From the NCBI RefSeq assembly GCF_044324875.1, contig NZ_CP172187.1: DNA of 64,000 nt; one strand, written 5' to 3'. The translations under genes and the position numbers were made by a program. The DNA is from Escherichia coli. Its GTDB lineage: Bacteria; Pseudomonadota; Gammaproteobacteria; Enterobacterales; Enterobacteriaceae. Of this stretch, positions 1 to 44,922 are shown one piece after another; position 1 is the first letter of the stretch, and each line of letters starts with the position of its first letter. The notes beneath the pieces were generated by a model, which was given only the letters and a program-made list of their open reading frames with translations, ran no database searches and had not been told where the DNA came from.

Positions 1-549
1 TCCAGCACCGTGCATTTTTCCGGTAATAATCACGGCACCATCCCCGATTGCCTCGCGAATATCTCTCGCTGCCAGCCCCAGAGCGCAATTGCTGACCCCG
101 TTATTAGGATTACCTGTTAGCACCAGAATTTTTGCGCCCATATTAACTAGCTTACGGGCATTGTTAGCCGTTGCTGCCCGCCCTGATTTCATTTTCCAGA
201 TATCGTCATGAGCAACAGCAAATTCAGGGTCTACGGCCTCCAGGTTCACACCAATGATACGGCCTGTCAGGCGTTGCAGTTCATGCAACGTTTGTTCTGG
301 TGCAATACCTGCGGGTAATCCCTGAATATACGGATTTTCACTGTCAAACATATTAACCAGTAAAATATCTGCGCCCTGTGATGCAGCAAGTTCGGCATTC
401 GTGACATTGTTCAGTAATGGCTGGGTAATCGCGATGGATTCGCTAACCATCACACGGCCTTCACTGGCACGAATAGCGTACAGAAGCCTGGTTTTATCCA
501 TCGATACAAAATCGGAAGCACAGCAGTCCAGCAGCCGTTTATTGGTCAT
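1..549 (-). CDS. hypothetical protein, partial (3' end beyond window edge); start ATG overlaps the stop of the upstream PTS gene
   Basis: Open minus-strand frame from ATG (complement of 547-549; MTNKRLLDCC...) running off the window; ATGA start/stop overlap with the PTS gene; family not recognised. Confidence 0.5.
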   Translation of the reverse strand, partial: MTNKRLLDCCASDFVSMDKTRLLYAIRASEGRVMVSESIAITQPLLNNVTNAELAASQGADILLVNMFDSENPYIQGLPAGIAPEQTLHELQRLTGRIIGVNLEAVDPEFAVAHDDIWKMKSGRAATANNARKLVNMGAKILVLTGNPNNGVSNCALGLAARDIREAIGDGAVIITGKMHGAG

Positions 550-1943
550 TGAGCGCCTCCTTGCTGATTAACCAGTTCACTGATTTCACCCGCGATAATT
601 TCTGCCCGGGTTCCTACAATGACCTGTAGCCCGGTATCTCCGCGTTTTACAACGCCCATGGCTCCGAGTTTCCTGAGTTCTGGCTCTTGAATCATGTCCA
701 TGTTTGCGACCTCCAGGCGCAGACGGGTAATACAGGCATCAATACGCATAATGTTTTCTTTCCCACCCAAAGCGGCAAGATACGCCGTTGCTAAATCGGA
801 GGAACCGGCAATAGCTGAAATGGTTTCCTCATTATCTTCTCTTCCTGGCGTAGCGAGATTAAAGCGACTAATAAAAAAGCGGAACAGGAAGTAATAAATC
901 AGTGCCCATAAGCCCCCAATAGGTAGCATTAATAACGGATGTGAGGCCAGTCCGAATGACAGTACATAATCAATTAACCCAGCCGAGAACGTAAATCCAA
1001 GTTTAATCCCAAGAATTTGACACACAGCCATAGAAACGCCAGTCAGTACCGCGTGGATACCGTAGAGCACAGGCGACAAAAACAAGAAGGTGTATTCCAC
1101 GGGTTCCGTAATCCCCGTCAGGAATGTCGTCAGCGCGAGTGACAGGAATAACCCGGCGACAGCGGGGCGTTTATCTTTCGGGGCTGCGTGATACATCGCG
1201 AGGCATGCAGCAGGCAGAGCAAACATAAATACCGGGAAATATCCCGCCATAAATGCCCCGGCAGAGGGATCACCGGCAAAGAATCGGTGGATATCACCGG
1301 TCACCACGGTACCATCCGCCGCCGTAAAGGAACCGAAAACAAACCAGACCAGCGAGTTAACAATATGGTGCAAACCCACGACGCGAAAAAGAACGTTCAG
1401 TATACCGTACACAAAGGGGCCAACCGGGCCAGACGCTACCAGCCAGTTACCAATTGCATTCACGCCATGCTGTACCGGTGTCCATGCCCAGCCAAGAATA
1501 ACACCCAGCAGCAGGCAACTTAACCCAGTGGCTATTGGGACAAAACGTTTTCCACCGAAAAAAGCCAGATATTCCGGTAACTTGATATTATGATAGCGAT
1601 TATACAGCACGCCCGCCAACAACCCAGTCAGAATGCCAGACAGGACCCCCATATTAAGTTCAGGATTGATAGCCTGCATCACAGAAGTCAGTACCAGGTA
1701 ACCAATCGTACCTGCCAGGCTGGCGGCACAGTGATTGTCCTTTGCAACCCCCCCACTGATACCTATGGCAAACAGTAGTGGTAAGTTTTCAAACAGTGTT
1801 TGCCCTGCTTTCATTACAAACACAATATTGAAAACATCGGGCTGCCCAAGACGTAGCAGCAACCCGGCGACGGGTAATACAGCAATAGGTAGCATCAGTG
1901 CCTTGCCCAGGCGCTGCATGATGACGAAAAAATTCCCCTGCAT
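546..1943 (-). CDS. PTS system glucose-family EIICB component (sugar unknown)
   Basis: 465 aa ORF; N-terminal multi-TM EIIC resembling PtsG/NagE; C-terminal EIIB with DACITRLR cysteine motif. Confidence 0.85.
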   Translation of the reverse strand: MQGNFFVIMQRLGKALMLPIAVLPVAGLLLRLGQPDVFNIVFVMKAGQTLFENLPLLFAIGISGGVAKDNHCAASLAGTIGYLVLTSVMQAINPELNMGVLSGILTGLLAGVLYNRYHNIKLPEYLAFFGGKRFVPIATGLSCLLLGVILGWAWTPVQHGVNAIGNWLVASGPVGPFVYGILNVLFRVVGLHHIVNSLVWFVFGSFTAADGTVVTGDIHRFFAGDPSAGAFMAGYFPVFMFALPAACLAMYHAAPKDKRPAVAGLFLSLALTTFLTGITEPVEYTFLFLSPVLYGIHAVLTGVSMAVCQILGIKLGFTFSAGLIDYVLSFGLASHPLLMLPIGGLWALIYYFLFRFFISRFNLATPGREDNEETISAIAGSSDLATAYLAALGGKENIMRIDACITRLRLEVANMDMIQEPELRKLGAMGVVKRGDTGLQVIVGTRAEIIAGEISELVNQQGGAQ

Positions 1944-2176
1944 AAATTCACCTCAGTAGTCGTTGTTCATTTTGCGCATGAGACAGTAAACCATCTATGT
2001 ACCATTTGTAGACCATAATGTTTTATGGCTAAAAAGACCTACTGATAGATAGCTGTTTTGTGATCTAACGAGCTTTATTTTTCTTCTGTGAGTGATTTCC
2101 AGGATGACAATGGACGCTCACTGGTTAAGAATTGGTATACAGAGATTGAACCAGATATAACCTGCTAAGAGGAACG

Positions 2177-2926
2177 ATGAAAAAAACTCCGCAACCCGAA
2201 TTTCATCTTGATGAATCCAGCGCGATGCCGCTGTATATGCAACTGGTTAATGCCATTAAGTTAGCCGTAGCGGAAGGTCGACTGCATCCTGGTGACGTTT
2301 TGCCGTCAGAACGGACACTGGTAGAGACGTTGAACATTGCGCGAGGCACAGCCCGTAAAGCATTGCAGCAACTGCTGGAAGAGGGCGTTCTCGTGCGTAA
2401 TCAGGGTTCTGGTACATTCGTTGCTCCACATGTACTTCAATCTCTGCCGTTATTGGAAAGTTTCAGTGAAATGGCCGTTGCCAGTGGTGGAGAAGCACAA
2501 AGCGAACTGGTCGGGTATCAGCGTCGGGCATCTGCGCCGGAAGAGCGTCGTGCCCTGCAACTGACAGATGGTAAAGATGAGGTTGTGGAGCTAACCCGAC
2601 TGCGGAAGATTAACGGTATTGCCGTTTCCCTTCAGACAGCGATTTTACCTGCGGCTCTGCTGGATAAAATCAGTGAACTGGATGAGTCGTTGTACCTGCA
2701 TCTGGAGAAGAAAGGCGCTCCAGTGCTGCGGGCGAGTCAGAGCTTCCGCGCAGTGCCAGTGGACAATAAACTGGCACACTATCTGAACATCGGGGAGCAT
2801 GAACCACTCCTGTTGGTAACCCGCACAGGCTTCACTCACGAAGATAAGCCGGTGGAATACACCCGGACATGGTGCCTGAATGATTACTATGATTTTACGA
2901 TTGAGCTACATCGAAAAGAATCATAA
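2177..2926 (+). CDS. GntR/HutC-family transcriptional regulator (HTH plus UTRA-like effector domain)
   Basis: 249 aa; N-terminal GntR-type HTH (SERTLVETLNIARGTARKALQQL); divergent from the PTS operon. Confidence 0.8.
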   Translation: MKKTPQPEFHLDESSAMPLYMQLVNAIKLAVAEGRLHPGDVLPSERTLVETLNIARGTARKALQQLLEEGVLVRNQGSGTFVAPHVLQSLPLLESFSEMAVASGGEAQSELVGYQRRASAPEERRALQLTDGKDEVVELTRLRKINGIAVSLQTAILPAALLDKISELDESLYLHLEKKGAPVLRASQSFRAVPVDNKLAHYLNIGEHEPLLLVTRTGFTHEDKPVEYTRTWCLNDYYDFTIELHRKES

Positions 2927-3406: not shown

Positions 3407-3487
3407 GATAACAAGATAACAAGATAACAAGATAACAAGATAACAAGATAACAAGGTGTTATCTTGTTATCTCAAGGTGTTATCTTT
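3407..3487. repeat. iteron array: six direct copies of GATAACAA followed by three inverted copies (TGTTATC)
   Basis: Read directly at 3407-3454 (direct) and 3455-3487 (inverted); immediately downstream of the parG-like gene. Confidence 0.85.
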
Positions 3488-3782
3488 GTTTTACTTCTGC
3501 TATCAATCGTGATACCTCTGTTTTTGATAGTGTTTTAAGTGCTTCTACCGCCGCCCTGACAACATCAGAACGATTCACTCTGCCTTTACCTGAAACCATC
3601 TCAGCCGTTATAAGGGCATCAATGTCTTTTAGGTTTTCTTCAAAAAAAGAAATACTCACTGGTTTTGCTTTGCTTACAACCGATGATTTATCTGATGACT
3701 TTTTGGTATTATCAAGGCCAGCCGTGCCACCGTTAATAAATGCTGCCTCGTCACGAGGTGAAGTGTTTGCTCTATTTCTCAC
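3480..3782 (-). CDS. ParG-like ribbon-helix-helix centromere-binding partition protein
   Basis: 100 aa with flexible basic N-tail and RHH-like C-terminus; 4-bp overlap with the upstream ParA-family gene, typical of type Ib par operons. Confidence 0.6.
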   Translation of the reverse strand: MRNRANTSPRDEAAFINGGTAGLDNTKKSSDKSSVVSKAKPVSISFFEENLKDIDALITAEMVSGKGRVNRSDVVRAAVEALKTLSKTEVSRLIAEVKQR

Positions 3783-4405
3783 AGAATAACCTCTTTCACT
3801 AACGCTTCGATTTCTTGCTGGGCTTTATCATTTTGCGTTTCAAAAATTGTCATTGATTCGGCCCAAGCATCTCGATGTGCTTTACGATCACATACCCGGG
3901 AGTTTGCCAGATGCATTTCAGGGTAATCCTTAAGTACTTCAGCTGCCTCATTGGCTTCATTAACAAACATATTTGTGGGCGTCATGTTTAAAACGAGATA
4001 TCCCCGAACATCCTCATTAAAATCTTTTGCTGCTGTAAAAACGGAGCATGTATGAGGCACAACATCCAGGTCCATCTGAGATGGGCGCAAAGGAGAAATG
4101 AATACATCTGCGGCCATCAATCCACTACGCATTTCTGCGCTATCACGGCCAGCACAGTCTGCAATAACAAAATCATAGGATTTTTCGTGTTCCTTTAACA
4201 TGGCTTTGATGTTACCTGTCGCGCCTGTAACCGGAATATGAGGGAGATCTTCAGGGCGATTGTTGTACCAGGTTAATACTGATTTCTGGTCATCTGCGTC
4301 GACAATAATCACTCTATTGCCTAGTGACATCAGATACGCAGCTATAGATACCGCCAGTGTACTTTTACCTACCCCACCCTTTTGACTACCTAATACTATT
4401 ATCAT
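3779..4405 (-). CDS. parA: ParA/ParF-family partition ATPase (small, type Ib)
   Basis: 208 aa; deviant Walker A KGGVGKST at N-terminus; GAGG RBS upstream of ATG. Confidence 0.85.
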   Translation of the reverse strand: MIIVLGSQKGGVGKSTLAVSIAAYLMSLGNRVIIVDADDQKSVLTWYNNRPEDLPHIPVTGATGNIKAMLKEHEKSYDFVIADCAGRDSAEMRSGLMAADVFISPLRPSQMDLDVVPHTCSVFTAAKDFNEDVRGYLVLNMTPTNMFVNEANEAAEVLKDYPEMHLANSRVCDRKAHRDAWAESMTIFETQNDKAQQEIEALVKEVIL

Positions 4406-4413
4406 TATAGCCT

Positions 4414-4500
4414 CATATTAAGTTGTTAAGTTAACAACTTAATATTGCCATCTGAACGCGAATCATGCAATTATTTTTGTTATATTAACAACTTAACAAG
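4414..4500. promoter_or_regulatory. palindromic operator-like sites upstream of the par operon (TTAAGTTGTT-AAGTT-AACAACTTAA and repeated AACAACTTAA motifs)
   Basis: Perfect inverted repeat read at 4414-4443 and related motifs to about 4500, in the par promoter region. Confidence 0.5.
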
Positions 4501-4532
4501 TTATTAAGTATTTGATTTATAGATTAATTAAT

Positions 4533-4580
4533 ATAACAAGATAACAAGATAACAAGATAACAAGATAACAAGATAACAAT
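4533..4580. repeat. iteron array: six tandem copies of ATAACAAG (same 8-bp unit as 3407-3487)
   Basis: Read directly; upstream of the par operon, so the par cassette is bracketed by the same iteron. Confidence 0.85.
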
Positions 4581-4600
4581 ATTATGGGTGGATTACATAT

Positions 4601-5872
4601 TCATAACTGGGCTACTGGCAAATCTGTCCATCTGGTGGTATACGCAGGAGAAAGCATTTCCCGTTTCATTTGCCATTCAGGGGCGGTTCCTCGCCCCGCA
4701 AACCACACTTTCCCTTTTCCAGACTGGTTCAGTTCATCGAGTGTTTTCATTAACTTTTCGCTGTTTTTACGGGGCTGGATCTCATCAAATAATCCCGGCT
4801 GCGCTATACCCGATGGTGTGAAATCAGCCAGCATGACTCCTGCCTTCATATAGCGGTACCCTTCACGCCAGACATGGTTTAAGGCTCTGCATGCGGCGGC
4901 AATAATGTCCCGGCTGTCCTGTGTGGGCAATGGAAGCTTTTCCACAGCGGCATTGCTGTAACAGGGTTCTTTTACTGCAAAGGGGGATGTCCGTACAAAT
5001 GTCGTCACCTGCCGGCAATACTGACGTTCCCCACGTAGTTTCTCTGCGGCCCGCTCTGCATACTGAACAACAGCCTGGTGCATGGCATCTTTGTCTGTGA
5101 TTCGTTCACCAAAACTGCGACTACAGACAATCTGCTGTTTTGCCGGTGGTGCTTCTTCCAGGGATATGCAGGACTCGCCGTTGAGTTCGCGTACCGTACG
5201 CTCAAGAATGACGCTGAAGTTTTTCCGGATGAATGCCGTGTTAGCCTGCGCCAGCTGCAGTGCTGTGTTAATACCCAGCGCATTCAGCTTTTCCGTCAGT
5301 CTGCGTCCTACTCCCCAGACCTCACCAACTGGCTGCAGCCCCAGTAGCTTCAAGGTCCGATTACGGTTTTCTGCCGTCAGCGCGACCACTCCGGAAAACT
5401 GTGGCCATTGCTTTGTTGCCCACTGTGCACTTTTAGCCAGCGTTTTTGTAGGCGCAATGCCCACCCCCATGGTGAGTCCTGTCCAGCTCTTTACCTGTTC
5501 CCTGAGCTGATGACCAAAAACCTCCGGAGAGATGCAATGATTTATCCCCCGCAAATCAATGAACATTTCATCAATTGAGTAGGGCTCAACTGCGGGAGAA
5601 AGCGACTCCAGAACAGCCATAACCCGTTGGCTCATGCTGTGGTACAGCGCATAATTGCTGGAAAATACATGTATTTTCTTCTCCAGGCGCATTTGTCTCA
5701 CCTGAAACCAGGGCTGCCCCATTCTGATGCCAAGGGCTTTTGCCTCCGGGCTGCGCGCGATCACACAGCCATCGTTATTGCTGAGTACGATGACCGGTTC
5801 GTTGCGAAGGTCCGGGCGGAAAACTTTTTCACATGAGGCGTAGAAACTGTTGATATCAGCCAGTGCAAACAT
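4601..5872 (-). CDS. impB: Y-family error-prone DNA polymerase subunit (UmuC/MucB/ImpB family)
   Basis: 423 aa starting MFALADINSFYASCEKVFRPDL, the conserved UmuC-family N-terminus; gene order small-DinI-like/UmuD-like/UmuC-like matches impCAB (symbol by synteny, from memory). Confidence 0.85.
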   Translation of the reverse strand: MFALADINSFYASCEKVFRPDLRNEPVIVLSNNDGCVIARSPEAKALGIRMGQPWFQVRQMRLEKKIHVFSSNYALYHSMSQRVMAVLESLSPAVEPYSIDEMFIDLRGINHCISPEVFGHQLREQVKSWTGLTMGVGIAPTKTLAKSAQWATKQWPQFSGVVALTAENRNRTLKLLGLQPVGEVWGVGRRLTEKLNALGINTALQLAQANTAFIRKNFSVILERTVRELNGESCISLEEAPPAKQQIVCSRSFGERITDKDAMHQAVVQYAERAAEKLRGERQYCRQVTTFVRTSPFAVKEPCYSNAAVEKLPLPTQDSRDIIAAACRALNHVWREGYRYMKAGVMLADFTPSGIAQPGLFDEIQPRKNSEKLMKTLDELNQSGKGKVWFAGRGTAPEWQMKREMLSPAYTTRWTDLPVAQL

Positions 5873-6309
5873 CAGCGTAACTCCCGCGTCCTGTGTATCA
5901 CGTGAGTGACAACACCAAAAATACAGATGTTTTCCGGATACAGTGTGCGGAACTCCGGGCTGTCTGAAACCGGCTCCAGTGCCGGGCGTGGGCGCAACAG
6001 CAGTCGTTTGACGGTGAACTCACCATCGATCTCAGCGATAACGATGTCCCCGTGTTGTGGTTTTTCGGCCCTGTCCACTACCAGCAGATCACCATTCTGC
6101 ACGCCAGCCTGGTTCATCGATTCACCGCTGGCGCGCAGAAAGAAGGTGGCTGCAGGTCTGCTGATGCAATAGCTGTTCAGATCCAGTTCCTGCTCAGCAT
6201 AATCAGTGGCAGGCGAAGGAAAACCGGCCTGGCAACGATCGGCAAACAACGGTCGCACGTAACTGTCATTGCCTGAAGGGTCAGCCGGACGGTGATAAAC
6301 GGTACTCAT
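5872..6309 (-). CDS. impA: UmuD/MucA/ImpA-family LexA-like S24 peptidase subunit
   Basis: 145 aa; C-terminal S24 peptidase region (GESMNQAGVQNGDLLVVD...); ATGA overlap with downstream polymerase gene. Confidence 0.85.
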   Translation of the reverse strand: MSTVYHRPADPSGNDSYVRPLFADRCQAGFPSPATDYAEQELDLNSYCISRPAATFFLRASGESMNQAGVQNGDLLVVDRAEKPQHGDIVIAEIDGEFTVKRLLLRPRPALEPVSDSPEFRTLYPENICIFGVVTHVIHRTRELR

Positions 6310-6554
6310 GCTGCAGGCAGCCAGCTGTCGTCCTGCCAGATTTCTTCCAGCAGAGACAGGATACGTTCTTTATCCTTGTCGTTGCGGGCTCCTGTGACAG
6401 ATACAGACGGGGCGCTGCCCTGGTCTATACGCAGCCAGATTTCCGGGTAGTGTGGTTTCAGACGTCGTTCGATTTCATTCTGTAGCGCCTGAAGTGTGCC
6501 TGATTTGAGGTTTTTTGTGCTCTGGCGGTCGAAAAGAATTTCAATGCGGATCAT
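6306..6554 (-). CDS. impC: DinI-like small protein (ImpC-like), first gene of the operon
   Basis: Start chosen at internal ATG (MIRIEILFDR...) preceded by GGGAGA RBS; C-terminus ...ILSLLEEIWQDDSWL resembles DinI family. Confidence 0.7.
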   Translation of the reverse strand: MIRIEILFDRQSTKNLKSGTLQALQNEIERRLKPHYPEIWLRIDQGSAPSVSVTGARNDKDKERILSLLEEIWQDDSWLPAA

Positions 6555-6577
6555 GTTCTCATCTCCCTTTTCTTTTG

Positions 6578-6593
6578 CTGTATGTATATACAG
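6578..6593. promoter_or_regulatory. LexA box (CTGT-N8-ACAG): CTGTATGTATATACAG
   Basis: Consensus SOS box 24 bp upstream of the impC-like start codon. Confidence 0.8.
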
Positions 6594-6862
6594 TATTCTA
6601 ATAACTGAATCCACACACAGTCAAATGTCATTATTGTGACTAAAAAACGCTCAATTCTCTGAGGGTGTGGCTGTATGCCTGCTGTGGACTGCTGTGTCCA
6701 GCTTATCCACAGCATTTTGCGCACGGTTCTGTGAATAAAATACCTGGTTACCCAGGCCGTGCCGGCACGTTAACCGGGCTGCATCCAATGCAAGTGTGTC
6801 GCTGTCGCCGGCATCCTCACCAGGTCACTCAGCAGTCAGGGAGAAAAATGGCGGATGAAGTA

Positions 6863-7221
6863 TGACGGAGACGGTCGGGCAAGTGCCCGTTTCTTTTCCG
6901 ACAAAGGATGTCGCCGTGCTCCTCTTTTTACTGCGCCGGCTGACGCGGCGCGGCATAAACGCTGCCTGTGGTCAGTGTCCCGCGTCCGGCGGGCACGGGA
7001 CGGGCGCTTTTACCGCTCCCGGCTGGCGTCGGTGACAGTGTACGCCAGCCCGTCGCCCTTTTCTGATGAACGCCCTTCAAGCCGCTTTCGCGGCATAGCC
7101 TTGCCGTCAAAAAGACGACGGCTGCGGTATTCCACGGTCGGCCTGACCCGTTACCGGACGCGGTGAACAGCCCACAGGCAGCGGGGAACGGGCACCACAG
7201 GGGGGCCCTCCCGGTGCTCCT
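6863..7221 (+). repeat. leading-region repeat family A, copy 1 (~360 bp, GC-rich, contains long imperfect inverted repeat arms 6954-6989 / 7154-7184)
   Basis: Near-identical to 8168-8526; ends at the RBS of the downstream gene. Confidence 0.85.
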
Positions 7222-7236
7222 GTGAGGAGAATTCCC

Positions 7237-8163
7237 ATGCCAAACTGGTGCTCAAATCGTATGTATTTTTCTGGTGAACCAGCACAGATCGCTGAGATTA
7301 AACGACTGGCCAGCGGTGCAGTCACACCGCTTTATCGCCGCGCCACAGATGAAGGTATTCAGCTGTTTCTGGCCGGTAGTGCCGGACTTCTGCAGACCAC
7401 TGAAGATGTGCGGTTTGAACCATGCCCCGGACTGACGGCTGCCGGACGTGGTGTTGTATCGCCGGAGAATATCGCGTTCACCCGCTGGCTGACACACCTG
7501 CAGAACGGTGTGCTACTGGATGAAAAAAACTGCCTGATGCTGCATGAACTCTGGCTGCAGAGTGGTACTGGCCAGCGTCGCTGGGAAGGATTACCGGATG
7601 AGGTCAGGGAAAGCATCACCGTGCATTTCACCGCCAAAAGAGGTAACTGGTGTGGCTTCTGGAGTAACGAGGATGTATCGGTGTGGTGGAACCGTCTGTG
7701 TGACAATGTACTGCCGGAAAAAACCATGCCGTTTGACCTGCTGACGGTTCTGCCCACCCGCCTGGATGTTGAAGTGAATGGCTTTAACGGTGGTGTTCTG
7801 AACGGTGTTCCTTCTGCGTATCACTGGTATACGGAACAGTATGGCGTGAAGTGGCCTGTGGGGTATGAGGTGAATATCAGCAGTCAGGGAGACAACTTCA
7901 TTCAGGTTGATTTCGACACGCCGTGGTGTCAGCCGGAAAGCGACGTTATTGCAGAATTAAGCCGCCGTTTCAGTTGCACACTGGAGCACTGGTATGCCGA
8001 GCAGGGCTGCAATTTCTGTGGCTGGCAGCGATATGAGCGTGGAGAGCTTGTTGATGTCCTGTGGGGGGAATTGGAATGGTCTTCCCCGACAGATGACGAT
8101 GAGCTGCCGGAAGTCACCGGACCTGCGTGGATTGTCGACAAGGTGGCGCATTACGGTGGATGA
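7237..8163 (+). CDS. hypothetical Cys-rich leading-region protein (family not assigned)
   Basis: 308 aa from ATG preceded by GAGGAG RBS (MPNWCSNRMYF...); multiple Cys/Trp-rich motifs incl. CNFCGW. Confidence 0.7.
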   Translation: MPNWCSNRMYFSGEPAQIAEIKRLASGAVTPLYRRATDEGIQLFLAGSAGLLQTTEDVRFEPCPGLTAAGRGVVSPENIAFTRWLTHLQNGVLLDEKNCLMLHELWLQSGTGQRRWEGLPDEVRESITVHFTAKRGNWCGFWSNEDVSVWWNRLCDNVLPEKTMPFDLLTVLPTRLDVEVNGFNGGVLNGVPSAYHWYTEQYGVKWPVGYEVNISSQGDNFIQVDFDTPWCQPESDVIAELSRRFSCTLEHWYAEQGCNFCGWQRYERGELVDVLWGELEWSSPTDDDELPEVTGPAWIVDKVAHYGG

Positions 8164-8167
8164 ATTC

Positions 8168-8526
8168 TGACGGAGACGGGCGGGCAACCGCCCGTTTCTT
8201 TTCCGACAAAGGATGTCGCCGTGCTCCTCTTTTTACTGCGCCGGCTGACGCGGCGCGGCATAAACGCTGCCTGTGGTCAGTGTCCCGCGTCCGGCGGGCA
8301 CGGGACGGGCGCTTTTACCGCTCCCGGCTGGCACCGGTGACAGTGTACGCCAGCCCGTCGCCCTTTTCTGATGAACGCCCTTCAAGCCGCTTTCGCGGCA
8401 TAGCCTTGCCGTCAAAAAGACGACGGCTGCGGTATTCCACGGTCGGCCTGACCCGTTACCGGACGCGGTGAACAGCCCACAGGCAGCGGGGAACGGGCAC
8501 CACAGGGGTGCCCTCCCGGTGCCTTC
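8168..8526 (+). repeat. leading-region repeat family A, copy 2
   Basis: Near-identical to 6863-7221; ends at RBS of the methyltransferase gene. Confidence 0.85.
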
Positions 8527-11986: not shown

Positions 11987-12178
11987 TACAGGGGCAGGCG
12001 GTGGAGGCCGCCTGTCAGCCCGCGCGAAAACCCCTGGCAGGCTGACGCCTGCCGGAAGGGAAGCGGGCCACGCTGGCGCGTCGCCCGTTACCCTTCCCGT
12101 CTGTGATGTGTCTGACTCAGGAGTGTTTCTTTCTTATGTTGCGGAACTGTTCCTGATGTTGTTGTTGTTCCTTTATCT

Positions 12179-12788
12179 GCTGCTCTGATTCTGACTACTG
12201 CAGTGTTGTTCTGTCTGCCGGGCGCACCTTCGGCTCCCGGCTGCCTGGCGGCATCCGGTCGTCAGGCCCGACTCCGACAGGCAGCTGCTGGCGCACCTGC
12301 CAGTCTCCGCCGAACCCGCTGGCGCGGCTTCGGGCTGCCGCTACGGTCCGATGCGTGAAAACCCCGGGCTTGCAGCGACCGTTCTGGTCGCGCCGCCTCT
12401 GTCGCGCCGTGGCCTGCGCTCCAGGCATCCCGGCAAAAAGACGCCGGGATGTAAGGCGCAACGCCGTTTCGCAAACCGCGCTTCACGTCGTTGCTGCGGG
12501 TCCCTGCTCATTGCCTGCCGGGTGCCACACACCCGTATGAGTCCCTGTCGCCGGGGGCATAGACAGCCACAACCTGCCGCACTGACTGTCCAGGGTAAAT
12601 GAACAGCCCACAAAATTTTTTACCCAAAACCCGGTAAAAAATTTTGCGTTCTGCCCAGGACAGGTGCGTCAGGCCGTGGCAGTGATGCCCCTTGCGGCGA
12701 AGGTTCTCAAACGGGTGAAGTTCATACCACAGGGAATACAGCAGCAGGTTCCCGCGAAACGTCAAAACCGCGGCTCCCGAAACTCAAC
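12179..12788 (+). repeat. leading-region repeat family B, copy 1 (~610 bp, GC-rich, internal palindromes); Frpo/ssi-like
   Basis: Three near-identical direct copies (12179-12788, 15536-16167, 23600-24229); contains hairpins such as CATCCCGGC-AAAAAGAC-GCCGGGATG. Confidence 0.85.
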
Positions 12789-13027
12789 GGGTGATGTTCT
12801 TTAAAAATCAGGATTTATTTCAGGCTCCGGCAATACGCATTTATGTGTTCTGTCAGTCATCCGGCTGGCAGGTAATGAGAACGCAGGAACAGAAGGAGGA
12901 AAACACCGGAGAACGTCAGACGCAGATATGAAAAAAGCAGGCCGGGGAGGACCTGCTTAATCCACACCGCAAAAACTGTTCGAGCAGTTTCTGCGGTTCC
13001 ATTCAACAGTCATAAGGAGTTTCATTT

Positions 13028-13258
13028 ATGACGGTAAGTATTGTTTCACCTTCCGCAGCGGCTGTAAAGCCCCGCCGTCATCCCCGTTTCAGACGCGAAG
13101 ACATCCCCGCGCCGGAAATTGACCCCGTGCTGAAAGCCTTCGGGCGACACATAGCCCGGAGTTTTCACCGGGGGCGTGGTGTACACATCCCCGCCATGAA
13201 AAACACGGCCTTCGGGCAGGTGCTCCGCACACTCGAACTGAAACGCGCTTTTAACTGA
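13028..13258 (+). CDS. hypothetical basic small protein (76 aa)
   Basis: AAGGAG RBS; first ORF after repeat B1. Confidence 0.45.
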   Translation: MTVSIVSPSAAAVKPRRHPRFRREDIPAPEIDPVLKAFGRHIARSFHRGRGVHIPAMKNTAFGQVLRTLELKRAFN

Positions 13259-15281: not shown

Positions 15282-15460
15282 TGACACAGGGCTGGCGGGA
15301 GGATAAATGCCCGTCTGTCCGCGCCGGGAAAAGACCGCGCGCCGGTGGCGCTGAAAGGGGCCGCGCTCACGCGCCGCCCCTTTCATTACGCGGACGTTCT
15401 GATGGGGGCTTCTGTCTTTTCAGACCTGTCATTTGTCTGTTACTGATGATGTTGTTGTTC

Positions 15461-15525
15461 CTGCTACTGCTACTGCTACTGCTACTGCTACTGCTACTGC
15501 TACTGCTACTGCTACTGCTACTGCT
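15461..15525. repeat. hexanucleotide tandem repeat (CTGCTA)n, ~11 copies
   Basis: Read directly; absent at the equivalent position of repeat copies B1 and B3. Confidence 0.9.
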
Positions 15526-15535
15526 CTTCTTTTTC

Positions 15536-16167
15536 CTGCTGCTCTGATTCTGACTACTGCAGTGTTGTTCTGTCTGCCGGGCGCACCTTCGGCTCCCGGC
15601 TGCCTGGCGGCATCCGGTCGTCAGGCCCGACTCCGACAGGCAGCTGCTGGCGCACCTGCCAGTCTCCGCCGAACCCGCTGGCGCGGTTTCGGGCTGCCGC
15701 TACGGTCCGATGCGTGAAAACCCGGCTTGCAGCGACCGTTCCGGTCGCGCCGCCCCTGTCGCGCCGTGACCTGCGCTCCAGGCATCCCGGCAAAAAGACG
15801 CCGGGATGTAAGGCGCAACGCCGTTTCGCAAACCGCGCTTCACGTCGTTGCGGCGGGTCCCTGCCCGTTGTTGTGTCCGGTGCCATTCACCTGTTTAAGC
15901 CCCTGTCGCCGGGGGCTGATACAGCCACAACCTGCCGCACTGACTGTCCAGGGTAAATGAACAGCCCACAAAATTTTTTACCCAAAACCCGGTAAAAAAT
16001 TTTGCGTTCTGCCCAGGACAGGTGCGTCAGGCCGTGGCAGTGATGCCCCATGCGGCGAAGGTTCTCAAACAGGTGATGGTGAATACCGGAGGGAACAAAG
16101 AGCAGGTCCCCGCAAAACGTCAAAACCGCGGCTCCCGAAACTCAACAGATGATGGGGGCTGAAAACA
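15536..16167 (+). repeat. leading-region repeat family B, copy 2 (immediately upstream of ssb)
   Basis: Near-identical to copies at 12179 and 23600. Confidence 0.85.
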
Positions 16168-16187
16168 TCAACAGAAGGAGACACATC

Positions 16188-19100
16188 ATGGCAGTTCGTG
16201 GCATTAACAAGGTCATTCTTGTCGGTGTGCGCCGTTGAAGCGCGGTGTTTTATGGAGTGTTGCCTGAAAAGCAACATGGCTTAGTGGTATAGCCATTGCA
16301 TACTGTGGTTAGCCTTGCTTGGTAACAGGCTCGGAGATCCTGAAAAGGAGAGGTGAACATAGCATCCACAGAAAAGGGTGGTGAATATGGAAATCGTTAT
16401 AAGTATCACCATTCAATGCAAGATGTATATGGATAAACTGGGTTTGTTGAAGTCGAGATCTATGTGGGAAACAGGAAACCAATAACGCAGAACGATTGAA
16501 GCGTTATTCCCGTACTAGCACAAGAAATCCGTCCGACGTTGATTGTGACCACTCTAACGGGCCAGCTATTGATGAAATAGTTAAACGATCGAAAGACATC
16601 CTAAGTACATCGCATCTCCACACCGTGAAACTACGGGACTACCTAAACTGGATTTATACCCAGCATGGTAGCGGAGTCTCCATAGTACTCAAGGTCGGCC
16701 TGTAATGGGTTCCGGCAGTCCGCATTATACGGAAGCAGCAAAGGTATAAATCAACCGGAAGGAAGATGAAAGCCTCACAGTGCTGCGGGGAAGGGAGACA
16801 GTTGTTAGATACATCAATCTCTAAGAGGAGGGTTAGCCAATGCTGCCTGATGAACTTGAGAAAAGATTAGATGGAATTGAGGATGCTTCAAAAAAAGGGT
16901 ATCCAGTACGTAATCTATACAAAATTGCGTGTGAGCCCGGACTGTGGCTGCAAGCCTACGTGAATATACGGGCCAATGCAGGTGCACTGACTCAAGGTGT
17001 ATCAACAGATACCATTGATGGCTTTTCTATCGAAAGAGCAGAGAAGCTGGCAAAAACATTGCGGAGTAGAGAATACGTAGCGAAACCTGTACGCAGAGTT
17101 CAGATCCCAAAAAAGGACGGAAAAACCAGACCGCTGGGGATTCCAGGTGGAGACGATAAACTGGCGCAAGAAGTAGCAAGAATTATTCTGGAAAGGGTTT
17201 ATGAACCAGTATTCTCTGAACACTCTCATGGATTCAGACCAAAACGTTCGTGTGAAACTGCGCTCAGATCTATTCGTCCAGTCTGGAACGGAGTTAAATG
17301 GATCGTGGATGTTGATATCAAAGGTTTCTTTGACAATATCCCCCACAAACTATTGCTGAATACACTGGCAGAGAAAATTAAGGATAAGAATTTCCTGAAA
17401 TTAATCGAACAGTGGCTGAAGGCAGGATATGTGGACAATTGGAAATACCATCGCTCATATTCTGGCACGCCACAAGGTGGGATAATTTCTCCCTTACTGG
17501 CAAATATATACCTCGACAAACTGGACCGTTTTGTAGAACAGAATTTAATTCCTGCATATACAAGCGGTACAAAACGAAGAGCGAATCCAGATATGAACAG
17601 GCTGGCCCATAAGATTCATAAACTACGAAAGAAAGTAGACGGTATGGCAACTGATTCTGAATCAGAAAAAGAAGCCATAAAGAAAGAAATTGAACGACTG
17701 CTTGAAGAAAAACGTTCTATACCATCTCAGGTCATGAACGATCCAAACTTCAGGCGTATGTACTATGTTCGATATGCTGATGACTTCGTAATCGGTGTCA
17801 TCGGCTCGAAGAAAGATGCTGAACATATATCAAGACAGGTCAGAAACTTTATTACTACTTCACTGGGATTGGAAGTTAATGAAGCAAAGACCAGGATCCG
17901 CCATATCTCAGAAGGAGTTAATTTTTTAGGCTATGAAATCAGACAGGCAGATGCAAAGAAATTGCTGAAGCAGAAAATGCAAGGGCGGCACGCTCTCCGG
18001 AGATCCACCACAGGAATTGTGCAGCTCTTCGTTCCTGACAATATAGCCGCTAAATTTTGTCACCAAAAGAAATATGGCTGTTATGAGAATGTGAAGGCTG
18101 TACATCGTTCAAGTCTACAAAATCTCAGTGAAGCTGAAATTGTTCTGACTTTCAACGCGGAAATGCGCGGATTGGCGAACTACTACAGTCTGGCGCTGGA
18201 CATGAAATATAAATTATCAAAATTATATTTCATATGGCAAATAAGCCTTTTTAAGACCCTGGCGAATAAACGACGTAGTTCAGTGAATAAAGTCGCCAAA
18301 TCGCTACGGCAAAATAATGGAGATCTGGCTATTACCGTTCAGGCCAAAAATGGATCCCGAAAGATTGAGGTTTTCAAACTCAAACATGTCAATCGCAACC
18401 GAACAACGATTGTCGATACGGAACCGAGAACCGCACATATCACAACCCGCACAACAGAGATCATGCGTCGATTAGGGGCAAGGATCTGCGAGTATTGTGC
18501 GAAGACTGGGCGCTGCGAAGTACATCATGTCAGAAAGCTAAAAGACCTGAAGAAAGGTCGTAAGGCCGGATATAAACCCAGCTTGTGGCAACTAATGATG
18601 ATCGCACGCCGCCGGAAAACGATGATTTTGTGCGCAAGTTGCCACGACAAGTTACATAGCGGAAAACTACCCGATTTGAGACAGGAAAAGGGAAGAATAC
18701 TCCTGCAACCACCTGTCTCAAGCGGGGATTCTGCTAAATGAGTTTATCCCCAATAAGCTAGCAATGGAGAGCCGTATGCACTGAAAGGTGCACGTACGGT
18801 TCGGAGGGGGGGTAACGGTGATCTAACTCAAGATAAGCAGGACATATTCGCCATTTATCTTGAAAGACCACACGTACCCTACCCTACCGTCTGGGAAAAG
18901 ATCCGGAAGTCCGTTACATCCCAAACGGGGGCGCAGTGGCAAACCTGCAGGTGGCCACGTCAGAAAGCTGGCGCGACAAACAGACGGGGGAGATACGGGA
19001 GCAGACAGAATGGCATCGCGTGGTGCTGTTCGGCAAGCTCGCGGAAGTGGCTGGTGAGTATCTGCGCAAGGGCGCGCAGGTCTACATCGAAGGTCAGCTT

Positions 19101-29598: not shown

Positions 29599-30313
29599 TA
29601 CGGCAATAATATTCGGCGGCCTGTTTTTTTCCTGCAGCGTGATGGCCGCAAACGGTACGCTGGCCCCCACTGTGGTGCCAATGGTGAACGGTGGTCAGGC
29701 CAGTATTGCCATCAGCAATACCAGCCCGAATCTGTTTACCGTTCCCGGTGACCGGATTATCGCCGTGAACAGTCTGGATGGTGCCCTGACCAATAATGAG
29801 CAGACCTCCTCCGGCGGTGTGGTGGTGGCCACCGTCAACAAAAAGCCCTTTACGTTCATTCTGGAAACAGAACGTGGTCTGAATCTTTCCATTCAGGCCG
29901 TTCCCCGTGAAGGCGCGGGGCGTACCATTCAGCTGGTCAGTGACCTGCGCGGAACCGGAGAAGAAGCCGGTGCGTGGGAAACGTCCACGCCTTACGAATC
30001 CCTGCTTGTGACCATCAGCCAGGCTGTCCGTGGCGGAAAATTACCTGCAGGCTGGTATCAGGTTCCTGTGACAAAGGAAACCCTGCAGGCCCCGGCGGGG
30101 CTGTCTTCAGTGGCAGATGCCGTATGGACGGGGAATCACCTGAAGATGGTCCGCTTTACCGTGGAAAATAAAACGCTGTCTGCCCTGAATATCCGGGAAA
30201 GTGATTTCTGGCAGCCGGGAACCCGTGCCGTGATGTTCAGCCAGCCTGCCAGCCAGTTACTGGCAGGTGCGCGCATGGATGTGTATGTCATCCGTGACGG
30301 GGAGGGCAACTGA
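29585..30313 (+). CDS. traK: TraK (secretin-like)
   Basis: 242 aa; synteny. Confidence 0.85.
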
Positions 30314-31740
30314 TGGCCAGTATCAACACCATTGTGAAACGCAAGCAGTACCTGTGGCTGGGGATTGTGGTTGTCGGTGCAGCCTCCGCGATTGGTGGGG
30401 CACTGTATCTGTCTGATGTGGACATGTCCGGTAACGGTGAGGCGGTGGCTGAACAGGAGCCTGTACCGGATATGACCGGTGTGGTGGATACGACCTTTGA
30501 TGACAAGGTGCGTCAGCATGCCACCACAGAGATGCAGGTGACGGCAGCGCAGATGCAGAAGCAGTATGAGGAAATCCGTCGTGAGCTGGATGTCCTGAAC
30601 AAACAGCGCGGTGATGACCAGCGTCGTATTGAAAAGCTGGGACAGGATAATGCTGCCCTGGCAGAGCAGGTAAAAGCCCTGGGTGCAAATCCCGTCACCG
30701 CGACCGGTGAGCCAGTACCGCAGACGCCAGCCTCACCGCCCGGCCCGGAAGGCGAACCACAGCCAGGAAACACACCCGTATCTTTCCCGCCGCAGGGCAG
30801 CGTTGCTGTTCCACCGCCGACGGCGTTTTATCCCGGGAATGGTGTCACGCCACCACCACAGGTGACGTACCAGTCTGTGCCGGTGCCTAACCGGATACAG
30901 CGTAAGGTGTTTACCCGTAATGAGGGAAAACAGGGACCATCACTGCCGTACATTCCGTCAGGAAGTTTTGCGAAAGCCATGCTGATTGAAGGGGCGGATG
31001 CCAATGCCTCTGTCACCGGTAATGAATCCACGGTGCCGATGCAGCTGCGTATCACCGGCCTGGTGGAAATGCCGAACAGCAAGACGTATGACGCAACGGG
31101 ATGTTTTGTGGGTCTGGAAGCCTGGGGGGATGTGTCCAGTGAGCGTGCCATTGTACGCACCCGCAATATCAGCTGCCTGAAGGACGGCAAAACTATTGAT
31201 ATGCCGATTAAGGGGCATGTCAGCTTCCGGGGTAAAAACGGTATCAAGGGCGAAGTGGTGATGCGTAACGGCAAAATCCTCGGCTGGGCATGGGGCGCGG
31301 GATTTGTTGACGGTATCGGTCAGGGAATGGAGCGTGCCTCCCAGCCGGCTGTCGGGCTGGGTGCCACCGCTGCTTACGGGGCCGGCGATGTCCTTAAAAT
31401 GGGTATCGGTGGCGGCGCATCGAAAGCCGCACAGACGCTCAGTGACTACTACATCAAACGTGCCGAACAGTATCACCCGGTGATACCGATTGGTGCGGGC
31501 AACGAAGTGACCGTGGTGTTCCAGGACGGCTTCCAGCTGAAAACCGTGGAAGAGATGGCGCTGGAACGCACGCAGAGCAGAGCTGAAGAAGACAATCCGG
31601 AAAGTCCGGTTCCTGTTCCGCCATCGGCTGAAAGTCATCTTAACGGCTTTAATACTGACCAGATGCTGAAGCAGCTGGGCAACCTGAATCCGCAGCAGTT
31701 TATGTCCGGCAGCCAGGGAGGGGGCAACGATGGCAAATAA
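30313..31740 (+). CDS. traB: TraB (VirB10-like)
   Basis: 475 aa; Pro-rich linker; synteny. Confidence 0.85.
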   Translation: MASINTIVKRKQYLWLGIVVVGAASAIGGALYLSDVDMSGNGEAVAEQEPVPDMTGVVDTTFDDKVRQHATTEMQVTAAQMQKQYEEIRRELDVLNKQRGDDQRRIEKLGQDNAALAEQVKALGANPVTATGEPVPQTPASPPGPEGEPQPGNTPVSFPPQGSVAVPPPTAFYPGNGVTPPPQVTYQSVPVPNRIQRKVFTRNEGKQGPSLPYIPSGSFAKAMLIEGADANASVTGNESTVPMQLRITGLVEMPNSKTYDATGCFVGLEAWGDVSSERAIVRTRNISCLKDGKTIDMPIKGHVSFRGKNGIKGEVVMRNGKILGWAWGAGFVDGIGQGMERASQPAVGLGATAAYGAGDVLKMGIGGGASKAAQTLSDYYIKRAEQYHPVIPIGAGNEVTVVFQDGFQLKTVEEMALERTQSRAEEDNPESPVPVPPSAESHLNGFNTDQMLKQLGNLNPQQFMSGSQGGGNDGK

Positions 31741-32314
31741 TATGTCACTCCGTCAGATATGCCATGCCACCCGGTATGTTGTTGTCCGGGGCCTGTGTTG
31801 GTTGTTCTGGTGTCTGAAATACGCCGTCATTCTGCCACTGGCCACAATGGCCCTGATGGCTCTGTTTGTTTTATGGAAGGACAACACCACACCGGGAAAA
31901 TTACTGGTTCAGGAAATTGACTTCGTAAGACAAACAGCCCCTGCCGGGCAGTTTCCTGTAAGAGAATGTTTGCCTTCTCTGCATGATCTTCCAGGAGCAG
32001 AAGAGAAAATCTGCCGTTACCGTGCTGCTGATGCTGCAGATTATGTCAGGGAGACTGACCGGTCACTGATGCAACTGGTCACCGCATTCTGGGCAACGCT
32101 GGCACTTATGTATATGTCGTTTGCGGCAGGCACCGGGAAATATCCGGTGCGACCCGGAAAAATGAAATGTGTCCGTGTGGCAACAGCAGATGAGCGTCTG
32201 AAGGAAGTTCTTGCAGAAGACACTTCCCTGCCGGGAAAAATCAGGGAATGCCATGTTTATTTCCCTGATGACAGAACAATCAGAAACAACGGAGATAAAA
32301 ATGAACATGCGTAA
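31730..32314 (+). CDS. traP: TraP
   Basis: 194 aa; synteny. Confidence 0.75.
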   Translation: MANNMSLRQICHATRYVVVRGLCWLFWCLKYAVILPLATMALMALFVLWKDNTTPGKLLVQEIDFVRQTAPAGQFPVRECLPSLHDLPGAEEKICRYRAADAADYVRETDRSLMQLVTAFWATLALMYMSFAAGTGKYPVRPGKMKCVRVATADERLKEVLAEDTSLPGKIRECHVYFPDDRTIRNNGDKNEHA

Positions 32315-32621
32315 TATTAATGTTATTACTGCCCGCTCTGTACCGGATAAAAGCGTATCAGATGATTTTATGCATGCTGTTCTCAGTAACTGCACCACAA
32401 GAATCGTACTTCCTGCACCGAAGGAATTCAGTTCTGAATCATTGCCGCACAATTTTAATATGGCTGCTGTCGGTGTGATGAAGAAGGGTATGTCGATGAG
32501 CTTATTTTCTTCTCCGGGGCATATTGTGGTTGCCGGACAATCCGGTGGCGGAAAATCTGTTCCGGTGAAAGAACTAATCGACAGAATTATTCAGAAATAT
32601 AAGGAACCCTTCGATGAATAA
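32301..32621 (+). CDS. trbD: TrbD-like (larger than F TrbD)
   Basis: Start at ATG after GGAGA RBS; position. Confidence 0.6.
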   Translation: MNMRNINVITARSVPDKSVSDDFMHAVLSNCTTRIVLPAPKEFSSESLPHNFNMAAVGVMKKGMSMSLFSSPGHIVVAGQSGGGKSVPVKELIDRIIQKYKEPFDE

Positions 32622-32865
32622 GCTGGTTTCTGATGGCAGCGTCAAAAAAATAAATTATCCGGTGCTGTATGAATCCGGAATAACACCTCCGTTATGTGAA
32701 GTCAGTGCGCCAGAACCTGATGCGGGGGGGAAACGCATTGTGGCATATGTTTATAAATCATCACGGAATACGGTTTTTGAAAATCCTGACATTGTAAAAA
32801 CCTGTACGGTCAGGGATTTGAAGAATGATTTTGTGAACTGCGATGAGAAAGGTGAGGGACAATGA
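32614..32865 (+). CDS. trbG: TrbG
   Basis: 83 aa; position. Confidence 0.7.
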   Translation: MNKLVSDGSVKKINYPVLYESGITPPLCEVSAPEPDAGGKRIVAYVYKSSRNTVFENPDIVKTCTVRDLKNDFVNCDEKGEGQ

Positions 32866-33377: not shown

Positions 33378-33511
33378 CTGGCCCTGAAGTTGTATATCAG
33401 CCGGCAATGTCGGCGGGCTTTCTGTATTCAAAATCTGCCTGTAAAACGAGTGCCCTGTGCGTGAAAAGGGATGGGCGGTAGCGTGTCAGAACATGTCGGG
33501 AGGAATATTCC

Positions 33512-33733
33512 GTGAGTGATGAAGCCGATGAAGCATATTCAGTGACAGAACAACTGACCATGACAGGAATAAACCTGATACGCCAGAAAATAAATGCTCA
33601 TGGTATTCCTGTTTATCTCTGTGAAGCATGCGGAAATCCTATTCCGGAAGCCCGGCGGAAAATATTTCCCGGTGTGACGTTGTGCGTTGAATGTCAGGCG
33701 TATCAGGAAAGGCAGAGGAAACACTATGCATAA
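33512..33733 (+). CDS. traR: TraR (DksA/TraR zinc-finger)
   Basis: 73 aa; CEACGNPIPEARRKIFPGVTLCVEC zinc finger. Confidence 0.85.
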   Translation: MSDEADEAYSVTEQLTMTGINLIRQKINAHGIPVYLCEACGNPIPEARRKIFPGVTLCVECQAYQERQRKHYA

Positions 33734-34199: not shown

Positions 34200-34247
34200 G
34201 AATCTGCAGTGTTTTATGACCTCATAAGTTAACTGAAGGGATATTCA

Positions 34248-44907: not shown

Positions 44908-44922
44908 TCGCGGATTTGATTT

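Follow-up and report, generated by a model that had tools for sequence, protein, structure and literature searches.

A plasmid impCAB operon with a predicted LexA operator at the far end of the leading region in a conjugative F-type plasmid from Escherichia coli

What does a mutagenic polymerase operon do on a plasmid whose leading region encodes an inhibitor of the SOS response? In the 64-kb window analysed here (the whole stretch of E. coli DNA, 64,000 nucleotides), an impCAB-like operon shares the replicon with psiB, and a sequence-only reading of the locus had suggested that the two genes sets provide opposing SOS inputs. Our analysis points to a different relationship between them. The window probably carries a functional copy of plasmid impCAB, predicted to encode a DinI-like RecA modulator and a UmuD'2C-type (Pol V-like) translesion polymerase, and for this explanation as a whole, including LexA control and silencing during plasmid entry, we estimate a probability of about 0.88.

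The operon comprises three genes on the minus strand in the order impC-impA-impB, with overlaps of 4 nt between impC and impA (the impC stop and impA start share ATGA) and of 1 nt between the impA stop and the impB start. The product of impC (6306..6554; 82 aa) belongs to the Pfam DinI family PF06183 (E = 3.6e-18, 66.1 bits with a cut-off of 24.2). On the NCBIfam DinI equivalog it reaches 42.7 bits, short of the cut-off of 111, and is therefore designated DinI-like, not DinI proper. Proteins of the DinI family act as modulators of RecA filaments, and a DinI-like first cistron sets imp apart from mucAB, rumAB and umuDC. The second gene, impA (5872..6309; 145 aa), encodes a predicted UmuD-like self-cleaving subunit of the Peptidase_S24 family (Pfam), which scores 143 bits on the NCBIfam UmuD subfamily model NF007621 (cut-off 110). 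Alignment to 8gmt_B and 1umu places Ala28-Gly29 of ImpA at the UmuD cleavage site Cys24-Gly25, and the catalytic dyad is kept as Ser (in GESM) and Lys (in FTVKR). The third gene, impB (4601..5872), is an intact ORF for a UmuC-like Y-family DNA polymerase of 423 aa with the Pfam domains IMS, IMS_C, IMS_HHH and DUF4113 and a score of 797.7 bits on the NCBIfam UmuC subfamily NF002955 (cut-off 431). In alignments with solved Pol IV structures, its residues D6, Y11 and D101-E102 fall on the catalytic and steric-gate positions, and a stretch resembling a clamp motif, QPGLF, occupies residues 358-362 as read from the alignment with the pEGY2 protein. The S24 peptidase, the Y-family polymerase, the DinI-like first cistron and the LexA operator described below are the features of an impCAB/umuDC-like (Pol V family) operon. 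The sequence-only reading had called the three genes DinI-, UmuD- and UmuC-like, which the ORFs and the Pfam and NCBIfam matches bear out, and it had rested on active polymerase genes; judged from the translated ORFs, these genes are intact and lack none of the catalytic residues.

The best sigma-70-like promoter in the interval 4300..7300, with 10 of 12 consensus matches, lies upstream of impC on the minus strand (6595..6624) and consists of a -35 box TTGACT (6624..6619), an 18-nt spacer and a -10 box TAGAAT (6600..6595). A Shine-Dalgarno sequence, GGGAG, can be read at 6567..6563 on the same strand. Adjoining the -10 box is the predicted primary LexA operator, TACTGTATATACATACAGCA (6595..6576, minus strand), which ends 21 nt ahead of the impC ATG. 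The corresponding 20-mer TGCTGTATGTATATACAGTA (6576..6595) fits TACTG(TA)5CAGTA at 18 of 20 positions and encloses the CTGT-N8-ACAG core CTGTATGTATATACAG (6578..6593), where a consensus LexA box had been placed from the sequence alone. That placement was upheld, as this is the only site in the window with three or fewer mismatches to the 20-mer LexA consensus (none of 100 shuffled sequences gave one), and it ranked first in a weight-matrix scan of both strands. Its score of 27.6 bits is level with the best training sites of the matrix, which was trained on E. coli LexA boxes. A weak second LexA-like site, AACTGAATCCACACACAGTC (6603..6622, plus strand; 11.0 bits in the matrix scan), overlaps the -35 box. 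Gammaproteobacterial LexA boxes have a heterology index below about 15. In the IncI1 plasmid pTF2, an identical 20-mer at the same distance (-21) was assigned a heterology index of 1.60 by the authors of that study, who also list the sequence of the weak second site at -48 with an index of 13.49 (PMC12211044). In an SOS-hyperinduced lexA mutant carrying pTF2, proteomics revealed a 21-fold increase of ImpC, a 9-fold increase of ImpA and a 2-fold increase of ImpB (PMC12211044).

In an alignment of 10 plasmids, nine retain the CTGT and ACAG half-sites, with changes confined to the spacer. One IncF plasmid has a rearrangement breakpoint within the operator and has lost the promoter together with half of the operator. 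All promoter copies found on plasmids share at least 96% identity, and none of intermediate divergence is seen, so that the preserved operator tells little more than that the copies have a common ancestor. A terminator-like hairpin with a T-run (6742..6757, minus strand; a consensus match only), located about 120 nt upstream of the -35 box of imp, may insulate imp from antisense read-through. A Frpo-like hairpin was also considered for the 300 bp that separate impC from the first leading gene and was rejected, its fold being weakly better than those of shuffled sequences (z = -2.7) and its centroid fragmentary. Elsewhere in the window, a second strong LexA-like site was observed within a group II intron (16646..16665). 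No promoter was found near this site, a search for diverged intron copies suitable for testing its conservation returned none, and a literature search gave no paper covering it.

The strand that enters the recipient is indicated by the origin of transfer. An R100-type oriT nic site, GTAGTGTGT^GGTGC, is located at 26370..26383 on the minus strand with the nick between 26375 and 26374, and we take its sequence to be that of the R100 nic site. The match extends over the surrounding nic region as TTTGCGTAGTGTGT^GGTGCTTTTGGTGGTGAGAACCACC (about 26390..26350, minus strand), and the extended nic match TTTGCGTAGTGTGTGGTGCTTTTGGTGGTGAGAACCACCAACC lies between an slt/orf169-like gene (25774..26376, minus strand) and traM (26707..27090, plus strand), the latter confirmed by NCBIfam NF010267. 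The F-type features of the backbone comprise this MOBF-like nic site, traM, traJ, traY and FinP. With the nic sequence on the minus strand, the minus strand is the transferred strand (T-strand), and it consequently templates ssb, psiB and psiA but has the sense of the imp mRNA. As in F-like leading regions, ssb, psiB (21741..22175; 144 aa; NCBIfam equivalog NF010255, 274.5 bits with a cut-off of 100) and psiA (22172..22891; 239 aa; NF010258, 422 bits with a cut-off of 243) are all on the plus strand. The sequence-only reading was thus correct in assigning imp to the strand that incoming ssDNA cannot template and psiB, the SOS inhibitor gene, to the early-expressed strand. The imp operon closes the leading region of this conjugative F-type plasmid at its distal end and faces the opposite way.

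Upstream of ssb...psiB, the plus strand carries a Frpo/ssi-like repeat (15522..16169; repeat families D1, D2 and D5), and other copies are present at 12163..12811 and 23583..24232. On the minus (T) strand, the repeat is predicted to form a hairpin of about 230 nt with a folding energy of -121.3 kcal/mol (z = -10.9), and none of 100 shuffled sequences was as stable. In F, Frpo1 and Frpo2 flank ssb...psiA-flm, and the repeats of the window are positioned alike (PMC9849209). All three repeats are candidate Frpo-like elements, judged by their position and fold. In F, PsiB is produced early and transiently from ssDNA (PMC9849209). Two recent NAR papers on psiB and early expression during conjugation contain no umu, imp or muc data.

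The mechanism we propose joins features observed directly in the window (anatomy, intact catalytic residues, operator and strand assignment) with three points taken from the literature: induction that depends on LexA, transient expression of PsiB from ssDNA, and the UV protection and mutagenesis conferred by ImpCAB. In the established double-stranded plasmid, host LexA would repress imp from the near-consensus operator adjoining the -10 box, and the weak site over the -35 box is probably also bound by LexA. DNA damage would activate RecA, leading to LexA self-cleavage and derepression of imp. Activated RecA would then promote cutting of ImpA at Ala28-Gly29 to give ImpA', which together with ImpB would form the active polymerase, whereas ImpC would temper ImpA cleavage. 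For this plasmid, we expect binding by LexA, cleavage of ImpA and an active polymerase from its sequence and from near-identical copies elsewhere. During conjugation, the minus strand would pass into the recipient with its 5' end leading, beginning at the nick (26375/26374), and the Frpo-like hairpin promoters on the entering strand would drive expression of ssb, psiB and psiA, so that PsiB would be made at once and would block RecA activation. Transcription of imp would have to wait for the complementary strand, and resident LexA could by then occupy the operator. We infer that these three locks (orientation, LexA and PsiB) act together on this plasmid to silence the mutagenic polymerase during entry; as PsiB expression fades, imp would become an ordinary SOS gene.

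The suggestion of opposing inputs holds instead that PsiB and impCAB act on the SOS response from two sides, a regulatory antagonism tuning the state of the host. It draws on the presence of psiB and imp on one replicon, on the contact of both with the RecA/LexA circuit, and on the DinI-like nature of ImpC, through which an imp product could feed back on SOS. However, ImpA and ImpB are downstream effectors of LexA and activated RecA rather than inputs, and PsiB would prevent the induction of imp, not oppose its effect. The two barely overlap in time, PsiB being early and transient in F (PMC9849209) and imp expressible only later, and deletion of impC, impA, impB or impCAB in pTF2 left the SOS levels of sulA and recN unchanged (PMC12211044). 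We regard such an antagonism as unlikely, and the phrase "opposing SOS inputs" as imprecise: PsiB is an input, which blocks RecA activation, whereas impCAB is a LexA- and RecA-dependent output, and they act at different times. Since PsiB blocks RecA activation, and imp needs both LexA cleavage and activated RecA, the early production of PsiB and the orientation of imp on the late strand pull the same way, and both hold the mutagenic polymerase silent while the plasmid enters.

Nor is the layout special to this replicon, for it is the standard published arrangement of I-complex and many F-type plasmids (PMC11541004). The umu-like operons described at the terminating boundary of leading-region anti-defence islands likewise lie at the distal end and against T-strand transcription (Samuel et al., Nature 2024, PMC11541004). 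As in those islands, the imp operon of the window is found near methylase, anti-restriction, ssb and psiB genes with candidate ssDNA promoters, with no difference in kind. The impCAB operons of the I-complex plasmids TP110, pTF2 and pEGY2 have the same three-gene order with overlapping stops and starts. The proteins of pEGY2 (IncK2/Z) are 99% identical to those of the window (421 of 423 residues in ImpB, one different residue each in ImpA and ImpC), and pTF2 has both LexA sites, primary and secondary, in identical form and at equal distances from the ATG (PMC12211044). The I-complex copies have the same neighbours, a partition gene of the ParA type to one side and, to the other, the leading-region end with DUF1281 and methylase genes, although I-complex plasmids are of the MOBP/MPF_I type and the backbone of the window is F-type. 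With the chromosomal umuDC and dinI of E. coli, imp shares the LexA operator, a self-cleaving subunit with the same dyad and a Y-family polymerase with a DUF4113 tail. It differs from them in its DinI-like first cistron, in an Ala-Gly rather than Cys-Gly cleavage site, in the divergence of its proteins from UmuD and UmuC, and in being plasmid-borne. The impCAB operon of the IncI1 plasmid TP110 was reportedly described by Lodwick, Owen and Strike in 1990, and UV protection and mutagenesis are reported for this plasmid. A further impCAB, on the Shigella flexneri virulence plasmid, is said to enhance UV survival and induced mutagenesis (by the title of Runyen-Janecky et al., 1999). Likened by description, that case resembles the window in having imp on an F-lineage plasmid, but the virulence plasmid is not self-transmissible. 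Earlier work thus already covers the gene set, the operator and its SOS induction as well as the orientation and place of the operon at the boundary, and the window provides one more instance and no new principle; the same operator and the SOS induction of ImpC, ImpA and ImpB were published in 2025 for an IncI1 plasmid (PMC12211044).

Close relatives of the plasmid raise the question of whether imp in F-type plasmids is a dispensable, decaying passenger, its LexA box a relic and its orientation without meaning for timing. One of the best window matches, pTB-nb3 (NZ_CP033634), is 100% identical to positions 25001..50000, and both pTB-nb3 and the other, NZ_CP129283, carry an IS2/PIN/AbiH insertion in impB which is absent from the window. 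In the two closest F-type relatives, impB is disrupted by IS2 with PIN and AbiH genes (pTB-nb3) or by ISEc10 (pDEC5B-5). These insertions, together with the operator breakpoint in the IncF plasmid mentioned above, suggest that selection for imp in F-type backbones may be weak. Classic IncF plasmids such as pEK499 are without the cassette, and in them sopAB directly abuts the leading region. In pTF2, deleting impA, impB, impC or the whole operon produced no significant change in SOS levels or conjugation frequency (PMC12211044), which gives no sign of a role for imp in transfer. Against decay, the window itself has three intact ORFs that keep their catalytic residues and overlap at start and stop codons, behind a promoter and operator that are close to perfect. 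The imp module matches at least 5000 PLSDB records, and 2058 of the best-scoring 5000 cover at least 80% of the 2.4-kb query, compared to 2218 records with at least 80% of the promoter region, from which intact operons appear to be the norm. The strong SOS induction of the operon in pTF2 (PMC12211044) also argues for a working system, as do the reports that impCAB of TP110 and of the virulence plasmid of Shigella confers UV protection and mutagenesis. Overall, we consider it quite improbable that the operon is a mere passenger.

Finally, it is scarcely credible that CTGT-N8-ACAG is a chance palindrome of an AT-rich promoter and that the operon is not LexA-regulated, for although the 16-mer pattern taken alone does not reach significance in 64 kb (2 occurrences versus 0.79 expected; 18 of 100 shuffles gave at least 2), the 20-mer match and top matrix score, the classic operator position beside the -10 box, and the heterology index and proteomic induction reported for the identical site in pTF2 (PMC12211044) all stand against it.

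Our preferred reading, a functional impCAB under LexA control and silenced during entry, leaves room for more than one origin of its arrangement. The opposite orientation of imp could be a trace of its origin as a separate cassette, rather than of selection for timing. A bolder, tentative and rather doubtful possibility is that the constant position of impCAB at the far boundary, pointing outward, is a selected timing device, in which orientation, resident LexA and early PsiB would jointly ensure that the plasmid's own Pol V-like enzyme never works on its incoming single-stranded copy. That copy would be undamaged, RecA-coated ssDNA, and as such an ideal substrate for untargeted Pol V mutagenesis. 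If this were true, plasmids fresh from transfer should carry a measurably higher mutation load once psiB was lost or imp inverted.

Error-prone polymerases carried by plasmids can make stressed hosts mutate faster and thereby aid the evolution of resistance, and recognition of an intact, predicted LexA-controlled copy on this F-type plasmid is useful for annotation. The locus also touches on the questions of why umu-like operons so consistently end leading regions, and whether PsiB shields the incoming plasmid from them.

ORF calling on the minus strand at 4601..6554 identified three closely packed reading frames, impC (6554..6306), impA (6309..5872) and impB (5872..4601). ImpC (82 aa) matches the Pfam DinI family (E = 3.6e-18), ImpA (145 aa) is a Peptidase_S24 protein scoring 143 bits against the NCBIfam UmuD subfamily (cut-off 110), and ImpB (423 aa) contains IMS, IMS_C, IMS_HHH and DUF4113 domains with 797.7 bits against the NCBIfam UmuC subfamily (cut-off 431). 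The impA start overlaps the impC stop by 4 nt (ATGA) and the impB start overlaps the impA stop by 1 nt, the signature of a translationally coupled operon. Compared with their counterparts on pEGY2, an IncK2/Z plasmid, the proteins are identical at 421/423 (ImpB), 144/145 (ImpA) and 81/82 (ImpC) positions.

When ImpA is aligned with the solved structures of UmuD and UmuD', its Ala28-Gly29 falls at the UmuD cleavage site (Cys24-Gly25), and both the Ser nucleophile (GESM) and the Lys that acts as general base (FTVKR) are retained. ImpB, aligned to solved Pol IV structures, retains D6, the steric-gate Y11 and D101-E102, and its QPGLF sequence (residues 358-362) resembles the UmuC β-clamp motif. 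Inactive polymerase genes would have refuted the sequence-only reading; as far as sequence tells, they are not inactive.

Upstream of impC, a -35 box (TTGACT, 6624..6619, minus strand) and a -10 box (TAGAAT, 6600..6595, minus) with an 18-nt spacer form the top sigma-70-like match within 4300..7300 (10/12 positions), and a Shine-Dalgarno sequence (GGGAG, 6567..6563, minus) precedes the ATG at 6554. The predicted LexA operator, the 20-mer TACTGTATATACATACAGCA (6595..6576, minus), touches the -10 box, in the classic operator position. The 16-mer LexA pattern by itself is not beyond chance, because its two matches in the 64 kb, the other one at 55214 inside the tra region, compare with 0.79 expected and 18% of shuffles gave two or more. 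The 20-mer does exceed chance: it agrees with the consensus TACTG(TA)5CAGTA at 18/20 positions and is the sole match in the window with three or fewer mismatches, while none of 100 shuffles produced one. It also ranks first in a weight-matrix scan, where its 27.6 bits equal the score of the best training sites (mean top score 12.3 bits in 300 Markov-random 64-kb sequences), the matrix, built from 20 E. coli SOS boxes, being approximate. A weak second LexA-like site, AACTGAATCCACACACAGTC (6603..6622), overlaps the -35 box. The site ranked third, TGCTGTGTTAATACCCAGCG (5261..5280, 16.1 bits), lies within the impB coding sequence and is probably due to chance; one or more sites with such a score occur in about 7% of random 64-kb sequences.

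Over 25001..50000, the window shows 100% identity with the tra region of the IncFIA, MOBF, MPF_F plasmid pTB-nb3, which comes from a chicken E. coli. Rfam matches in the window include FinP, the traJ 5' UTR (27181..27290), sok (22997..23173) and a group II intron, and the antisense RNA families AS-pc01, AS-traG and AS-traI score above gathering at 12932..13033, 49209..49294 and 61274..61350, all on the minus strand. Between the slt/orf169-like gene (25774..26376, minus) and traM (26707..27090, plus), which lie on either side of the nic region, the minus strand reads TTTGCGTAGTGTGT^GGTGCTTTTGGTGGTGAGAACCACCAACC, the R100-type form of the F nic sequence. It follows that the minus strand is the one nicked; its 5' end at 26374 is predicted to enter first, followed by falling window coordinates. 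As the transferred strand, it would be the template for every plus-strand gene between 6855 and 25477, including ssb (starting at 16189), a ParB-like gene, psiB (21741..22175; NF010255, 274 bits) and psiA (22172..22891), and the sense strand of impCAB. Thus, the earlier statement that psiB is templated by the incoming single strand whereas imp is not was correct.

The regulatory steps proposed for the established plasmid follow from what is known of umuDC, dinI and the imp, muc and rum operons. There, LexA would repress impCAB at the strong operator and probably also bind the weak site over the -35 box. DNA damage would activate RecA, leading to LexA self-cleavage and derepression of impCAB; ImpA would then be cleaved to ImpA', which together with ImpB would form a Pol V-like enzyme, and ImpC, as DinI does, would moderate ImpA cleavage. 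During transfer, imp would be kept silent by three independent locks: its template strand would not yet exist, PsiB, expressed immediately off the entering strand, would block RecA activation, and resident LexA could sit on the operator once it is double-stranded. The suggestion of the sequence-only reading that PsiB and imp provide opposing inputs does not hold, because PsiB would act upstream of the cleavage of LexA as well as that of ImpA, and the activity of the two loci would be separated in time.

Three dispersed repeats of ~650 bp are present in the leading region (12163..12811, 15522..16169 and 23583..24232). Folded as DNA, the minus strand of the second forms a ~230-nt hairpin (-121.3 kcal/mol, z = -10.9), with none of 100 shuffles equally stable. 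The second and third copies bracket ssb...psiB-psiA-hok/sok, the layout described for Frpo2 and Frpo1, single-strand promoters of F, where the leading genes downstream lose their early expression when the Frpo elements are deleted (PMC9849209). We call the three repeats Frpo-like elements. The 300 bp that separate impC from the first leading gene contain no comparable structure (fold z = -2.7). A CTGCTA/CTG triplet-type repeat run is located just upstream of the second element (15437..15559), and a diverged copy upstream of the first (12147..12194).

The plasmid ssb (16189..19376) is interrupted after codon 13 by a group II intron, exon 1 encoding 13 residues and exon 2 resuming downstream. 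The intron begins with GTGCG at ~16228, carries ltrA (16840..18741) and an Rfam domain V-VI (18767..18887), and lies between the Frpo-like promoter and psiB; since intron and ssb are oriented alike, splicing would restore the gene. This insertion is common among IncF plasmids. The LexA-like site ranked second in the window, AACTGGATTTATACCCAGCA (16646..16665), lies inside the intron, ~175 bp before ltrA begins. It scores 21.4 bits, and of 300 random 64-kb sequences only 0.3% reach that value. No sigma-70-like promoter was found near this site, and a literature search returned no paper linking group II introns to SOS boxes. Its conservation is uninformative, because all but two of the 442 intron copies on plasmids are at least 95% identical, and the palindrome may simply correspond to a stem in the intron RNA. 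In relatives, the ParB-like gene (19729..21686) is one 652-aa CDS; here a 1-nt deletion at ~20374 relative to the related plasmid pDEC5B-5 (otherwise 93% identity) breaks it into two ORFs, making it a pseudogene unless the deletion is a sequencing error. The leading region ends with a 300-bp direct duplication (6850..7149 and 8155..8454, 97% identical) that flanks a DUF1281 gene and creates two copies of a ~103-aa ORF.

At least 5000 PLSDB records match a 2.4-kb imp query, 2058 of the 5000 best-scoring ones covering at least 80% of its length, and the promoter region alone is nearly complete in 2218 records. Eight plasmids sampled down the promoter ranking comprised five MPF_I (I-complex) and three MPF_F plasmids, so imp is common on F-type backbones. 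Classic IncF plasmids such as pEK499 are without the cassette, with sopAB abutting the same leading-region end, and homology to them begins at 6665; the pattern is thus that of a ~2 kb imp cassette (roughly 4623..6664) that is either present or absent. In the two closest F-type relatives impB is disrupted by insertions, and one IncF plasmid has a breakpoint within the imp operator, which hints that imp, intact here, is dispensable on F backbones.

Between the impB stop (4601) and the start of a ParA-like gene (4405), the 4410..4600 region contains six tandem copies of GATAACAA (~4538..4585) together with several inverted repeats of the TTAACAACTTAA type (around 4420..4500); these repeats probably serve as operator and centromere-like site for an I-complex-type partition module (3480..4405, minus). 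Past this module, the genes at 546..2926 for a nagE-like PTS transporter (minus) and a GntR-family regulator (plus) are cargo, also present on two plasmids from chicken E. coli, pTB-nb3 and NZ_CP129283.

In a 2025 study, the IncI1 plasmid pTF2 was found to carry the identical 20-mer at -21 from impC (heterology index 1.60) and the identical second site at -48 (13.49), and in an SOS-hyperinduced lexA mutant ImpC rose 21-fold, ImpA 9-fold and ImpB about 2-fold; imp gene deletions left SOS levels and conjugation frequency unchanged (PMC12211044). In F, expression of the oppositely oriented leading gene ygfA begins only once ss-to-ds conversion has taken place (Couturier et al., PMC9849209). Together, these studies already account for what was observed, how it is regulated and the argument from strands. 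The earlier observation is accurate, and impCAB here is real and probably functional, but it is a textbook operon in a layout that has been published.
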